From the IMG/VR virus record IMGVR_UViG_2548876944_000012: DNA of 4,054 nt; one strand, written 5' to 3'. The position numbers and the translations under genes were made by a program. The first letter of the stretch is position 1. Every line of letters begins with the position of its first letter. The notes beneath the pieces were generated by a model that was given only the letters and a program-made list of their open reading frames with translations, was not told where the DNA came from and did not search any database. This document shows positions 1 through 4,031 of this stretch, piece after piece. Source of the DNA: a virus. Its lineage: Duplodnaviria; Heunggongvirae; Uroviricota; Caudoviricetes.

Positions 1-60
1 CCGAAGAGCCTCTCATTTCGTAGCAACTTTCTTAACAACACCTTTCAACGAGAAAATCCC

Positions 61-252
61 ATGTCAGAAATAAAATCTCTGGTCACTGCTGAAGCAGTGA
101 AGGACGTCCTGCGCTCTGAAGAAGTCAGAAGCGCACTGAAACAGCAACTCCGCCAGAATCTTGAGGCGCGTCTTGATGCTGAAGTGGATGCCATTCTGGA
201 TGAGCTGCTGGGGGGATCCGTTCCTGATGTCGTACTTCACTCAGACCACTGA
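61..252 (+). CDS. Hypothetical small charged, likely helical protein (63 aa); may be the 3' end of a longer gene
   Basis: ATG at 61 opens an ORF to a stop at 250-252. The same frame has no stop from position 1, so the true start could lie upstream of the window. No convincing Shine-Dalgarno before 61. The translation (MSEIKSLVTAEAVKDVLRSEEVRSALKQQLRQNLEARLDAEVDAILDELL...) is charged with heptad-like spacing. Not recognised as a known family. Confidence 0.35.
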   Translation: MSEIKSLVTAEAVKDVLRSEEVRSALKQQLRQNLEARLDAEVDAILDELLGGSVPDVVLHSDH

Positions 253-535
253 CGGCAGAGTGAATCTGATGCATCACAGGAAAGCCGGAAACACGAAGCT
301 GGGGGAGTTCGGCGATTACGGTAACGACTGGCAGACGCTGGAGCTGGTGTTCACCGCCGGCAGTGCCACGGTTACTCCGAAACTGAATGGAGTGGCTGGC
401 CCGGCATTCCAGGTTATAAAAGACAGTCTGACACTGGGACTGAATGCGCTGACGCTGACGGATGTTACAAAAAATGCAGCGTATGGCGTTGAGATAGAAA
501 GTCTGATGCTGGAGATAAATGCACCGGCAGCATAA
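227..535 (+). CDS. Hypothetical protein (102 aa) of the prophage late region
   Basis: The ORF track shows 161-535, but 161 is a TTG and the N-terminal 22 residues (W-rich) look like the shadow of the overlapping 61-252 frame. ATG at 227 is preceded by GGGGGA at 211-216. Stop TAA at 533-535 is followed directly by a hairpin. ATG at 269 is an alternative start. Small proteins of this size are common upstream of S in lambdoid prophages, but I cannot assign a family from memory. Confidence 0.45.
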   Translation: MSYFTQTTDGRVNLMHHRKAGNTKLGEFGDYGNDWQTLELVFTAGSATVTPKLNGVAGPAFQVIKDSLTLGLNALTLTDVTKNAAYGVEIESLMLEINAPAA

Positions 536-542
536 TAAAAAA

Positions 543-572
543 AGCCAGCGCCCACTCTGAAGGACGCTGGCT
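543..572 (-). terminator. GC-rich hairpin whose poly-T tract lies on the minus strand; orientation uncertain
   Basis: AGCCAGCG (543-550) pairs with CGCTGGCT (565-572), with two further inner CC/GG pairs. On the + strand it is preceded by an A-run (537-543) and followed by TAAAAC, which is not U-rich. On the - strand the hairpin is followed by TTTTTTTATTA, the canonical intrinsic-terminator layout. It sits right after the stop of the 227-535 ORF. Confidence 0.35.
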
Positions 573-642
573 AAAACGGGTAGATGTACTTCACATGATA
601 CTTATATTTGGCAGTACATTTTCTGACAGACAGTGACGGATG

Positions 643-669
643 TTGTCAAGATATTGTGTCATTTATAAC
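643..669 (+). promoter_or_regulatory. Weak sigma70-like promoter candidate (TTGTCA, 15 bp spacer, TATAAC), possible late pR'-like promoter
   Basis: TTGTCA at 643-648 and TATAAC at 664-669. The spacer is short at 15 bp. It lies about 100 nt upstream of the strong terminator at 748-782, matching the short promoter-to-terminator unit of lambdoid pR'/tR'. Motif-level evidence only. Confidence 0.2.
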
Positions 670-747
670 CTGAATCAGGGGTTGGTCGGAATGTTATCTG
701 GCATTTTTAGCAGAGCCTGAATGCCATAATCACGGCTCCCGGAGTTG

Positions 748-782
748 GCCGTCAGTGGGTGACACTGGCGGCTTTTTGTTTT
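748..782 (+). terminator. Strong rho-independent terminator just upstream of the holin, tR'-like
   Basis: 10-bp stem GCCGTCAGTG (748-757) / CACTGGCGGC (763-772) with one G-U wobble, 5-nt loop GGTGA, then TTTTTGTTTT (773-782). The holin start is 46 nt downstream. Confidence 0.6.
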
Positions 783-827
783 CCTTTACTTTCATTTTCT
801 GTCGGCGGTGACGGAGACATACATCAG

Positions 828-1034
828 ATGGAAAAAATCACAACGGGTGTGTCATACACCACGTCAGCGGTGGGGACGGGATACTGGTTACTGCAGCTGC
901 TGGACAAAGTCTCTCCGTCCCAGTGGGTGGCAATAGGTGTACTGGGGAGTCTGCTGTTTGGCCTGCTGACGTATCTGACTAACCTGTATTTCAAAATCAG
1001 GGAGGACCGCCGTAAGACGGCGCGGGGAGACTAA
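828..1034 (+). CDS. S: Class II holin (pinholin), phage 21 S21 / 933W S-like, 68 aa
   Basis: Translation [68 protein letters not shown] closely matches my memory of the phage 21 S68 pinholin (two TM segments, SPSQW motif, basic C-terminal tail). The track ORF 759-1034 begins at a GTG inside the upstream terminator stem, so the ATG at 828 is preferred. GGAGA at 811-815. Confidence 0.85.
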
Positions 1035-1038
1035 AGCG

Positions 1039-2028
1039 ATGAAGAAAAAATACGAACTGGTTGTTAAAGAGATAAATAATTACCCGGATAAGATTGCTGT
1101 TACTGTGGCACTTGAAATTGGCGGGCATCCGTCGTTGTTGTTGCCACATGTGGCGATTAGTCTTGACCGTACTGAAGGTGCCACGCTGGAGTTCTACGAA
1201 GCTGAGGCGAAAAAACAGGCGAAGCAGTTTTTCATGGATATTGTTGCCGGGTTATGCGAAGGGGATGAACCGTCACCGGAAAAGCGCCCCGTAATTTTAG
1301 ATGCGCAGGATGTATTGATAACCTACAAAGGAAAGCTACCGGGAAGAATTACTTGTTCTCTGAAGATGCCGCCGTCAACACTGCGGTCAGAAAAAGATGA
1401 TGTTGAATCGCGTATTGAAAAACTGGAGTGCTATATCGCTGAATTGAAAAAAAGCACCCCAACAAAAAATGAGGTGCTTGCAGCAGACGAAATGAAAGAA
1501 GCTATTCCTGATCGCGCGGCGAATCTAAGCTGCGCTTCATGGTTGAAAGAGCATCTTCAGCAGCCTGAAAAAAAACGCCGCGATGAGCAGTTTGCTGCGT
1601 TTTACGATTATTGCCGGAAAGTGATGAGCAGAAATCTCGCAGAGTGTTTCAGTATTCATAATGATAATTTCAGTGACCTGGAATGGGAGTGTAACCGGCC
1701 ATCCTTTGTTGTATCCGGTGATGCTGGGAAAATAACCATCTCAGAAAATGGAAAAGTAACACCGCCATCGCACCAGCATAGTGAGGAGCTCATTGAATTT
1801 GCCATTGATTACCTGAAGAACAATAAAAAGCAGGGGCTGATGAAGTGCATTGGTCGTTGCATGGGATATCTGCAGATAGCTGCTGAGATTGAAGCGCTGG
1901 CCAGTGGTGCGGACAAGGATGCAGTTGTGCGGGAGGCTCTTCTTCGTGATTTTGATAATCCGCCCTTTAAAAAAGTGCCGGCTTACTGGTTTCATCCAGG
2001 ACTGACTTATCTTAAAGGACGTATATAA
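1039..2028 (+). CDS. Uncharacterised 329-aa protein inserted between holin and endolysin; function unknown
   Basis: Long uninterrupted ORF. ATG at 1039 lies 4 nt after the holin stop, with GGGGAGA (1024-1030) inside the holin 3' end, which suggests translational coupling to S. No TM segment, signal peptide or catalytic motif that I recognise. Lys/Glu-rich with several Cys (for example CIGRC near the C-terminus). By eye it is more AT-rich than the flanking S, R and Rz genes (not computed). Confidence 0.8.
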   Translation: MKKKYELVVKEINNYPDKIAVTVALEIGGHPSLLLPHVAISLDRTEGATLEFYEAEAKKQAKQFFMDIVAGLCEGDEPSPEKRPVILDAQDVLITYKGKLPGRITCSLKMPPSTLRSEKDDVESRIEKLECYIAELKKSTPTKNEVLAADEMKEAIPDRAANLSCASWLKEHLQQPEKKRRDEQFAAFYDYCRKVMSRNLAECFSIHNDNFSDLEWECNRPSFVVSGDAGKITISENGKVTPPSHQHSEELIEFAIDYLKNNKKQGLMKCIGRCMGYLQIAAEIEALASGADKDAVVREALLRDFDNPPFKKVPAYWFHPGLTYLKGRI

Positions 2029-2070
2029 GCTGGCTCGTTATCTGTTGCCGATAAATCCTGATAAATATCC

Positions 2071-2604
2071 ATGAACACCAAAATCAAATACGGCCTGTCG
2101 GCTGCCGTTCTGGCGCTGATTGCCGCTGGTGCGCCTGCGCCTGATATTCTCGACCAGTTTCTGGATGAAAAGGAAGGTAACCACACCACGGCATACCGTG
2201 ATGGTGCGGGGATCTGGACCATCTGCCGTGGTGCCATCATGGTGGATGGTAAACCTGTTGTTCCAGGCATGAAGTTGTCGAAGGCAAAATGCGCTCAGGT
2301 TAACGCCATTGAGCGTAATAAGGCGCTGGCATGGGTGGAGAAAAACATCAAAGTGCCATTGACCGAACCACAGAAAGCGGGGATTGCGTCATTCTGTCCG
2401 TACAACATTGGCCCCGGTAAGTGTTTCCCGTCGACGTTTTATAAACGAATTAATGCAGGCGATCGCAGGGGGGCGTGTGAGGCGATTCGCTGGTGGATTA
2501 AGGACGGTGGCAGAGACTGCCGTATTCGCTCAAACAACTGTTACGGTCAGGTATCCCGTCGCGACCAGGAGAGTGCGCTGGCGTGCTGGGGAATTGACAG
2601 ATAA
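2071..2604 (+). CDS. R: SAR endolysin (lysozyme, T4-lysozyme-like fold), 177 aa
   Basis: The translation has a weakly hydrophobic Gly/Ala-rich N-terminal signal-anchor-release segment (YGLSAAVLALIAAGAPAP). Glu35, Asp44 and Thr50 (EGNHTTAYRDGAGIWT) sit at the positions of the phage 21 R21 / T4 lysozyme catalytic triad. Overall it resembles the lysozymes of 933W-type phages and E. coli cryptic prophages, as recalled from memory. There is a 42-nt gap after the upstream ORF and no strong SD. Confidence 0.9.
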   Translation: MNTKIKYGLSAAVLALIAAGAPAPDILDQFLDEKEGNHTTAYRDGAGIWTICRGAIMVDGKPVVPGMKLSKAKCAQVNAIERNKALAWVEKNIKVPLTEPQKAGIASFCPYNIGPGKCFPSTFYKRINAGDRRGACEAIRWWIKDGGRDCRIRSNNCYGQVSRRDQESALACWGIDR

Positions 2605-2694
2605 GCAGAATATTTTGCTGAAAAATGCGGTTTGCTCACACGGACGGATAACACGAAATCCTGCGAACTGACAAAAACTAAGTGAATAAAAGTA

Positions 2695-2736
2695 AAAACC
2701 CCGTTTGTTGGCTGCAAGCGGGGTTTTGTGTTTCCT
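2695..2736. terminator. Bidirectional rho-independent terminator in the R-Rz gap
   Basis: AAAACCCCG (2695-2703) pairs with CGGGGTTTT (2719-2727), 9 bp. On the + strand it is followed by TTTTGTGTTT; on the - strand by TTTTTACTTTTATT. Confidence 0.5.
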
Positions 2737-2763
2737 GACTCTGGAAAAGTCAAAGGAGAAAGT

Positions 2764-2901
2764 GTGTTTGATTTTAGCAAACTGATTCGGGAGATTCGAG
2801 TGATGGCTGAAAAATTATCCACCTGGAAGTTCATTCTTATCTGGCTGGTGTTTGTGATTATGGCCTCCGGTTATTTCATCGGTCAGATACGCTGGTGGTG
2901 A
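2764..2901 (+). CDS. Small hydrophobic single-TM peptide (45 aa from GTG 2764, or 32 aa from ATG 2803), translationally coupled to Rz
   Basis: AGGAG at 2754-2758 sits 5 nt before GTG 2764; an in-frame ATG is at 2803. Translation ends ...MAEKLSTWKFILIWLVFVIMASGYFIGQIRWW. Stop TGA at 2899-2901 is 1 nt before the Rz ATG at 2903. Too short to appear in the ORF track. Coding status unproven. Confidence 0.3.
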   Translation: MFDFSKLIREIRVMAEKLSTWKFILIWLVFVIMASGYFIGQIRWW

Positions 2902-2902
2902 A

Positions 2903-3370
2903 ATGAACCGCGTACTGTGCGTGGTCATCATTGCCCTGCTGGTGGCCTGTGGTGCGCTTAGTCTGGGGCTGAATCATTACCGTGATAACGCCATAACCTA
3001 CAAAGAGCAGCGCGATAAAAAAGTCAGTGAGCTGGAGCAGGCAAATGCAACCATTACTGATATGCAGCAGCGCCAGCGTGATGTTGCTGCACTTGATGCC
3101 AGATACTCGAGGGAATTAGCCGATGCGAGAGCTGAAAATGAAACTCTTCGCGCTGACGTTGCCGCTGGTCGTAAGCGCCTGCGGATCAACGCCACCTGTC
3201 CAGGCTCCGTGCGTGAAGCCCCCACCACCTCCGGCGTGGATAATGCAACCGGCCCCCAACTGGCAGACACCGTTACACGGGATTATTTCACCCTCAGAGA
3301 GCGGCTGATGACGATGCACAAGCAACTGGAAGGGGCACAGGACTATATCCGCACTCAGTGCCTGAAATAA
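2903..3370 (+). CDS. Rz: i-spanin Rz (inner-membrane spanin), 155 aa
   Basis: N-terminal TM segment followed by NHYRDNAITYKEQRDK...RDVAALDA...AENETLRADVAAGRKRLRI...DYFTLRERLMTMHKQLEG, which is near-colinear with lambda Rz as recalled. It contains the embedded +1-frame Rz1. Confidence 0.9.
   Translation: MNRVLCVVIIALLVACGALSLGLNHYRDNAITYKEQRDKKVSELEQANATITDMQQRQRDVAALDARYSRELADARAENETLRADVAAGRKRLRINATCPGSVREAPTTSGVDNATGPQLADTVTRDYFTLRERLMTMHKQLEGAQDYIRTQCLK
3123..3308 (+). CDS. Rz1: o-spanin Rz1 (outer-membrane lipoprotein), 61 aa, embedded in Rz in the +1 frame
   Basis: MRELKMKLFALTLPLVVSACGSTPPVQAPCVKPPPPPAWIMQPAPNWQTPLHGIISPSESG: signal peptide with lipobox VSAC (Cys20), a penta-proline stretch, and a PPPPPAWIMQP...QTPL...GIISPSE core shared with lambda Rz1 as recalled. 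Lies wholly inside Rz in another frame. ATG at 3138 is an alternative start. Confidence 0.85.
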   Translation: MRELKMKLFALTLPLVVSACGSTPPVQAPCVKPPPPPAWIMQPAPNWQTPLHGIISPSESG

Positions 3371-3720
3371 GTTTTGTTGATGCGCCGTATCGTCGCTGTA
3401 TTCCCTCATTAACAGAGACCGCAGCCCGACAGGGAGACTCCTCTGCGCGAGTGTGCGGGGATAATCAAAAACGATACACACCGGGGTTTACCGCGTTAAC
3501 GGAGCGCGGCGTTGTCCCCTCATAGTCGCCTGTCCGGTGCGATGGTGGAAGAAGTCGGATGTTTATCACTATTAATTGATGACACAGAAATGGATTCATT
3601 GAATTTCAGCACGTTTTTGTATTCGTGTTATTGAACATCTGTTTATTTTACTTTTAACATATTGATAATAAAAAGAGCTGTAAATCTTTAGATGAGTCGA
3701 TTTTGTCCGGGGAAGTTCAA

Positions 3721-3858
3721 ATGGATTTTATGCTGACGGTTTCTGGTGTGGTTATCCTGTCCATTGCTTATACTGCAGATAAATATGGCTGCCATTTGTT
3801 ATCACGTATTGGCGCTTATTGTTCGTTGATGCTGATTTTCTCGTCGCTTTTTTTTTGA
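3721..3858 (+). CDS. Speculative 45-codon hydrophobic peptide ORF in the AT-rich region downstream of Rz
   Basis: Manual translation gives MDFMLTVSGVVILSIAYTADKYGCHLLSRIGAYCSLMLIFSSLFF. GGGGAAG at 3709-3715 precedes the ATG, and the ORF ends in a T9 run (3848-3856). It sits in a roughly 300-bp AT-rich stretch with promoter-like hexamers. Not in the ORF track (too short); no homology recognised. Confidence 0.2.
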   Translation: MDFMLTVSGVVILSIAYTADKYGCHLLSRIGAYCSLMLIFSSLFF

Positions 3859-4031
3859 GTAAGTTATATTAATTATAACAAATAATTTTCTGTGTTATTT
3901 TTTCAGGCTATCCCGTCAGAGGGGAAGCCTGTACTGCCGGGGAGCGAATGGAAAACTGATGTGTCCGGTAACTGCGTGTTCTGTGAACACCATGTTACTT
4001 AGACTGGCCCCCTGAATCTCCAGACAACCAG

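Follow-up and report, generated by a model that had tools for sequence, protein, structure and literature searches.

By its sequence, the 4,054-nt stretch of DNA analysed here (the window) comes from a lambdoid prophage, of which it is the late region. Over positions 1–4001 it has 100% identity with such a prophage in E. coli O55:H7 DEC5B (hit H26), and the surroundings were followed in a locus of 28 kb taken around this match (L002; window position = L002 position minus 12000). The order of genes along L002 begins with RusA, a DUF1133 protein (L002 7474–8025), a small ORF and a DNA methyltransferase. It continues with tRNAs (Ile, Arg, Arg), an STnc100 RNA and, on the other strand, iraM, and then reaches DUF1737 and esterase gene fragments, DUF1378 and a DUF826 fragment. 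The last runs into the C-terminal remnant of a sialate esterase, which is followed by a gap of 292 nt, the holin, a DUF1327/YdfR-like ORF, lysozyme, Rz/Rz1 and terminase (Table 1). The ORFs at 61–535 had been judged, in an earlier sequence-only reading of this DNA, not to resemble Q, and this is borne out by their identification as the DUF826 fragment and the esterase (DUF6645) remnant.

Stx1 phages such as H-19B and YYZ-2008 match the window at ~96% over 216–1100, and in them the counterpart of 216–535 is the 3′ end of an intact esterase gene. The window is a recombinant (200–215; L002 12061–12535), in which a DUF826 gene cut after ~50 codons is joined to the last 111 codons of the esterase; the DUF826 part is of the kind that adjoins the holin in Stx2-type phages, and the esterase part is of the Stx1/434 type.

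The gap holds two separate elements in opposite orientation. A terminator scan of the window returned 9 terminator-like sites, where shuffles gave 4.0 ± 2.2. Its two best stems of 11 pairs were 572→543 on the minus strand, followed by TTTTTTATTA, and 747–773 on the plus strand, followed by TTTTGTTTTC. Folded alone, the first hairpin has an energy of −22.7 kcal/mol (z = −5.9) and the second −22.6 kcal/mol (z = −4.5), and in each case 0 of 200 shuffles was as good. Scan and folding thus agree that both hairpins picked out in the sequence-only reading are real.

Table 1. Features of the gap and its surroundings (window positions, except where L002 is given)
Feature	Position	Strand	Details
DUF826 fragment	61–213	+	fused to the esterase remnant
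Sialate O-acetylesterase C-terminal remnant (nanS-p type, DUF6645)	200–535	+	PasC converges on its 3′ end
PasC small RNA gene	537–614	−	runs 614→537, 78 nt here; 78/79 identical to E2348/69 PasC
PasC terminator hairpin	543–572	−	11 pairs, 8-nt loop; U-tract is the complement of 537–542
Candidate PasC promoter	620–649	−	TTGACA (649→644), 18-nt spacer, TGT-CAGAAA (628→620)
Promoter-like match (the earlier "weak promoter")	643–669	+	TTGTCA (643–648), 15-nt spacer, TATAAC (664–669)
Intrinsic terminator before holin	747–782	+	stem 747–757/763–773, loop GGUGA, U-tract 774–782 (UUUUUGUUU); last plus-strand terminator between Q and holin
Phage-21-type class II holin (pinholin)	828–1034	+	single start codon, ATG at 828; GGAG ribosome-binding site 813–816
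Further terminator between Q and holin	L002 8434–8451	+	
Further terminator between Q and holin	L002 9961–9978	+	after tRNAs
Further terminator between Q and holin	L002 10182–10203	+	end of STnc100 match

PasC, the leftward small RNA

Alignment with the E2348/69 locus identifies the backward-facing hairpin: it terminates PasC, a small RNA already known from prophages of pathogenic E. coli, and does so as an intrinsic terminator. In EPEC E2348/69, PasC is a 79-nt RNA opposite in strand to its neighbours, with the orientation "(> <) >" (Pearl Mizrahi et al. 2021, PMC8550237, Table S6); it was confirmed by northern blotting, is less stable without Hfq and has 31 RIL-seq partners (Pearl Mizrahi et al. 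2021, PMC8550237). The sole difference between the reference copy (NC_011601 1290909→1290832) and the copy in the window lies at position 607, where the RNA has A here and G in E2348/69. The published northern probe for PasC, CGCTGGCTAAAACGGGTAGATGTAC, matches the plus strand exactly at 565–589, so the RNA is on the minus strand, and the probe for PasA is absent from the window even with 3 mismatches allowed. In the alignment of the E2348/69 locus, the 3′ end of PasC is the last U of the tract that follows the 572→543 hairpin; the stem-loop of 11 pairs is succeeded by six U and then A. By analogy with other Hfq-dependent base-pairing RNAs, this hairpin with its U-tract is probably also the Hfq-binding 3′ end of PasC.

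The position of the element is that of the family. An arrangement of esterase, PasA or PasC, holin and lysozyme is conserved in prophages and Stx phages, YYZ-2008 and phage 2B8 being representatives (Zhu, Shabalina and Storz, bioRxiv 2026, 10.64898/2026.05.13.724894). We found the layout esterase–PasA/C–holin to be common to E2348/69 PP5 and PP2, phage 434, H-19B, 2B8 and Sakai Sp4, and the same position is taken in EHEC Sakai by the PasA homologue EcOnc52, which is found at the stop of the esterase gene and on the strand opposite to it. In the window, the minus-strand RNA likewise lies between the end of the esterase remnant (535) and the start of the holin (828). On every feature that could be tested in the sequence, the element at 537–614 is a member of the PasC/PasA family. 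With PasC of E2348/69 it shares the sequence, the terminator stem, the probe match, the position and the convergence on the esterase; it differs in its neighbour, since no more than the C-terminal part of the esterase is left here, joined to a DUF826 fragment. In the loci of the paralogue PasA (EcOnc51 and EcOnc52 of EHEC Sakai) the corresponding stem, AGCCAGCAC/GUGCUGGCU, is related to the PasC terminator and has an A-U pair in place of a G-C pair, and these loci carry ~155 extra nt with a second PasC-like unit, which the window is without.

The sequence-only reading had seen in 543–572 either a minus-strand terminator directed against all the genes or a bidirectional insulator. The opposing terminator stands, as that of PasC itself, whereas the insulator falls: after the hairpin the plus strand reads AAAACGGG, without a U-tract, so the structure cannot terminate in the plus direction and faces one way only.

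The stretch at 620–649 is a candidate for the PasC promoter. The start predicted from it, at ~613–614, fits the published 5′ end of PasC, which is window 614. The whole stretch, the TTGACA region included, is nearly invariant across the PasC, PasA, phage 434 and H-19B loci that were compared. The promoter region is identical to that of the E2348/69 copy, the one for which northern blotting and RIL-seq have shown an Hfq-dependent RNA.

The plus-strand match at 643–669, which the sequence-only reading had put forward as a promoter, shares its −35 region with this candidate on the opposite strand. It agrees at 10/12 positions and has a spacer that is too short at 15 nt; a plus-strand promoter scan with spacers of 16–18 nt returned none at 643–669. 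Over the whole window, matches this good are no more frequent than chance would give (2 observed, 1.4 ± 1.2 expected), and the probability of finding one within 140 nt upstream of the terminator is ~0.02. The conservation of 643–669 is explained equally well by the overlapping candidate promoter of PasC, and the site may be a second, weak start.

The CA-rich minus strand of 628–660 raised the suspicion of AgvB, the anti-GcvB RNA, and this candidate was dropped: AgvB and AsxR are RNAs of 51–60 nt with a different position, and the Rfam models for both gave no match.

A possible target of PasC lies next to it. The motif CTGATGCTGGA has been reported as a PasA target site in both esterase mRNAs of E2348/69 (Pearl Mizrahi et al. 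2021, PMC8550237). The esterase remnant retains it at 503–513 on the plus strand, and the small RNA may therefore act on its own neighbour, just upstream of their overlap.

Two observations were made on related loci. In PasA-type loci, the ~155 extra nt are found between the esterase stop and PasA (L006 5267–5420, L004 4314–4470, L029 2058–2138). They hold a second PasC-like terminator, AGCCAGCG...CGCUGGCU followed by U7, with its own upstream TTGACA; the stretch resembles a tandem second unit, and its position fits the end of the 236-nt minor form of PasA. In phage 933W, a minus-strand hairpin with U8, CCGCCAGCG...CGCUGGCGG, lies directly 3′ of the esterase stop (L008 6128–6165). Its stem and that of the PasC terminator are related, while the gap otherwise differs; this hints at a diverged PasC-like RNA in Stx2 phages.

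The hairpin in front of the holin

The plus-strand hairpin has the form of a strong intrinsic terminator, as the sequence-only reading had said: its stem of 11 pairs, of which 7 are G-C, is followed directly by the U-tract, the end of which (782) lies 45 nt before the holin ATG. By form we take it for an ordinary intrinsic terminator inside a phage late operon.

Conservation of this element was assessed upstream of the holin gene in 80 viral contigs, chosen because their holin is ≥93% identical to that of the window, and in the loci collected before. A hairpin of the family is present in all 85 of 85 loci (28 sequence types), where it ends 42–55 nt before the ATG of the phage-21-type holin, and in most variants four to seven U follow the stem. 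The stems are related but have diverged, from GGCCGUCAGUG/CACUGGCGGCU here to GCCAUCAGU/ACUGGUGGC, GACCAUCGG/CCGGUGGUC and, in 933W, GGCCAUCAG/CUGCUGGCC. Covariation was tested on an alignment of 21 distinct variants over a helix of 10 pairs. Pairing is kept in 96.6% of the cells, with both sides changed in 5 of the 10 pairs, and none of 500 shuffles attained the observed covariation score (0.408); in controls with the partner slid by 1–3 columns, 21–68% of the cells were paired. In four variants (types L080, L013, L058 and L043) the stem is kept and the U-tract is degraded (CUCCUGUU and similar), so that termination may not be the only function of the stem.

The hairpin is also found without the sequence that lies upstream of it here. 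The PasA/PasC block, which holds the promoter-like site, is missing from 55 of 79 loci that have the hairpin, and in 24 of those 55 an ORF ends close to the hairpin, 80–99 nt before the holin ATG; in 933W the stop of the upstream ORF lies about a dozen nucleotides before it. Thus the hairpin does not form a short promoter-to-terminator unit, as had been claimed for 643–782. The pre-holin structure is conserved, and on these comparisons it belongs with the holin rather than with the upstream sequence.

In the GenBank record of phage 434, three predicted terminators are annotated at equivalent sites: a pair on the minus strand that follows the esterase, and a plus-strand one that precedes the holin by 45 nt. 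The element at 747–782 is thus already annotated in that phage and of an ordinary kind, and the finding as a whole is already known. A literature search on a terminator before the phage holin found none, the gene order from Q to holin being described without any terminator there. What is added is modest: in every context examined, the phage-21-type holin has in front of it a hairpin of this family, mostly with a U-tract, which has been kept by compensatory changes. Such conservation would be in keeping with a shielding of lysis cassettes against transcription that comes from accessory genes upstream, among them those for toxin, tRNAs and esterase.

Q and transcription towards the lysis genes

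The sequence-only reading had allowed that Q might lie further upstream, and a Q-like gene was indeed located in the upstream flank. The protein of L002 7474–8025 matches DUF1133 with 348 bits and Phage_antitermQ with 30.6 bits (cut-off 26), and phage records name its relatives antitermination protein Q. The gene lies ~4.8 kb upstream of the holin and 3′ of RusA, as Q does in lambdoid phages. Between 70 and 100 nt after its stop there is a strong hairpin with U7 (L002 8095–8130; −23.3 kcal/mol, z = −7.2). The usual site of pR′–tR′ is directly after Q, and a possible promoter adjoining the gene, TTGCAA-17-TTCAAT, would be our guess for pR′. Other phages show the same order of Q, terminator, accessory genes, esterase and holin: in phage 434 the Q gene, with a terminator after it, is 3.8 kb upstream, and in the GenBank record of 933W a putative pR′, qut and the first terminator adjoin Q.

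We consider it quite likely that the gap consists of PasC, transcribed leftward, and a separate rightward terminator before the holin which lies inside the late operon and is read through by Q-modified polymerase. PasC would then be an independent gene for an Hfq-dependent base-pairing RNA, transcribed from ~614 to 537 and convergent on the esterase. Late transcription would start beside the Q-like gene and cross several intrinsic terminators, with 747–782 the last before the lysis genes. In the lysogen, this last terminator most likely stops transcripts that come from the accessory genes (tRNAs, the STnc100/PasD-like RNA and the esterase region), and holin and endolysin would thereby be kept off; after induction, RNA polymerase modified by Q at the Q-adjacent promoter would read through 747–782 and the other terminators. 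We infer the termination at 782, its efficiency and the Q-dependent read-through, like the position of pR′, from the form and place of these elements. In several respects 747–782 resembles the late-operon terminators at which Q antiterminates (Q–stx of 933W and the pre-holin site of phage 434): it is a GC-rich hairpin with a U-tract on the strand of the late genes, it lies downstream of Q and upstream of the late genes, and lysis would need read-through. Its proposed task of insulating the lysis cassette is inferred.

Published RNA data from EPEC E2348/69 bear on the plus strand of the gap. By RIL-seq, PasB forms 774 chimeras with plus-strand 743482–743611 of PP2, equivalent to window 597–727, and 54 with plus-strand 1290834–1290972 of PP5, equivalent to window 539–677. 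The RNA ligated to PasB starts upstream of any transcript from 643–669 and runs antisense across PasC. A plus-strand RNA is therefore present in the lysogen, and it fits read-through from the esterase region towards 747–782. In PP2 the DESeq2 base means are 102 for the esterase, 3.5 for the holin and 3.2 for lysozyme. This raw fall from esterase to holin is 29-fold and, expressed per kb, ~3- to 8-fold for holin and lysozyme on very few reads, so that it gives weak support to termination at 782. The best local duplex between PasB and the plus strand of the gap, at 624–647, has −18.7 kcal/mol, and 17 of 40 shuffled PasB sequences did as well.

A further possibility is rather unlikely in our view. 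The nearly invariant region 617–782 might be more than a promoter with a terminator and yield an RNA of the plus strand, bound by Hfq, whose 3′ end is at the pre-holin terminator; it could be the last part of a transcript from upstream or start at a weak promoter within the region. This RNA would pair with PasB of another prophage and be fully complementary to PasC over 78 nt. If so, small RNAs of co-resident prophages could tune the transcription or the mRNA that reaches the holin, and hence spontaneous lysis.

An independent plus-strand small RNA of ~105 nt, running from ~676 to 782 and ending at the pre-holin hairpin, divergent from PasC, we regard as unlikely, and we think equally little of its proposed origin in back-to-back promoters that share the −35 region TTGTCAAG. 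The near invariance of 617–778 across the PasC, PasA, 434 and H-19B loci, in which the bodies of the small RNAs differ, would speak for such an RNA, as would the folding of 676–785, somewhat better than that of shuffles (z = −2.6), and the plus-strand RNA of the gap in EPEC, bound by Hfq and ligated to PasB in the 774 chimeras of PP2. The RIL-seq fragments begin, however, before the proposed start, at the equivalents of 539 and 597; the PasC promoter accounts for the conservation; and the spacer has 15 nt. No matching Rfam family was found, and the listed Hfq-CRAC peaks of Sakai include none next to EcOnc51 or EcOnc52 on the strand of the holin, although Sp4 is interrupted by IS629 ~120 nt past the esterase stop. 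All 2861 copies found in E. coli genomes are ≥95% identical and offer little divergence for testing.

It is also quite unlikely that the pre-holin hairpin acts mainly after transcription, either as a structure that stabilises or processes the 5′ end of the lysis mRNA or as a modulator of holin translation and lysis timing. Compensatory changes keep the stem even where the U-tract is degraded, and the distance to the holin ATG is held within 42–55 nt, as such a role would have it. Against it, the 4–7 U after a GC-rich stem in most variants, that of the window included, are the signature of an intrinsic terminator, and the hairpin ends ~40 nt before the ribosome-binding site, with which it does not overlap.

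Very improbable is the sequence-only reading of 643–782 as pR′ and tR′, with a constitutive RNA of ~105 nt ending at 782 unless Q modifies the polymerase: a 10/12 match does stand ~100 nt upstream of a strong terminator directly before the lysis genes, and tR′ does lie shortly before the holin in lambda, 21 and 82, phages without inserted accessory genes, yet we reject it because adjacency to Q and inheritance as one unit both fail, the Q-like gene being 4.8 kb away with its own terminator 70–100 nt downstream and the hairpin being kept in most loci without the promoter-like block. Where a strong sigma-70 promoter with Q-binding and pause elements would stand, the sole candidate is the match with the 15-nt spacer, and the plus-strand RNA seen by RIL-seq begins upstream of the proposed start. 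The records of 933W and 434, too, have their first terminators beside Q.

With lambda pR′–tR′ (6S RNA) and StxS of Stx phages the locus shares a strong late-operon terminator upstream of the lysis genes. The lambda element lies directly after Q, whereas here Q is far upstream and has its own terminator; unlike tR′, 747–782 would have other terminators between itself and pR′, and no short RNA of the 6S or StxS type is known to arise from it. At 643–700 neither qut nor pause signals were identified, the qut of a DUF1133-type Q being uncharacterised. The "backwards" hairpin receives a published name, PasC, and a known mechanism, and the wrong assignment to pR′ and tR′ is removed. The proposed shielding of the lysis cassette bears on how Shiga-toxin and related prophages express accessory genes in lysogens without lysing the cell.

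Other elements of the late region

Between the holin and lysozyme, the window holds an intact ORF of 329 aa on the plus strand (1039–2028), in which the match to DUF1327/YdfR is limited to the first 100 residues. RefSeq has at this place a truncated YdfR pseudogene covering 1039–1374 only and leaves the remainder unannotated; the ORF may be a fusion or an accessory gene within the lysis cassette. Further on, in the 300-nt non-coding gap between lysozyme and Rz, there is a strong hairpin of 14 pairs at 2695–2727, AAAACCCCG...CGGGGUUUU (z = −4.2). Its 5′ side is A-rich and its 3′ side rich in U and G, and it is a further terminator-like element in the lysis cassette. An Rfam search of the window (E ≤ 1) gave nothing in 536–827, and its sole match, a rimP-leader at 2671–2760 at chance level, is due to this hairpin.

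The three phage tRNA genes are followed by a full-length match to STnc100 (L002 10023–10212, 132 bits), ~1.8 kb before the start of the window. STnc100 is related to PasD according to Zhu et al. (bioRxiv 2026, 10.64898/2026.05.13.724894). With this match, the small RNA genes in the late region of the prophage number two at the least and probably three. On the minus strand at 3371–3555, 3′ of Rz, the window is ~95% identical to a segment of Sakai Sp10 that has the Hfq-CRAC peak EcOnc11. EcOnc11 has been renamed HnrS, a prophage small RNA of 66 nt that represses hha (PMC13502914). The minus strand of 3371–3555 contains CUUCUUCC, which could pair with a ribosome-binding site.
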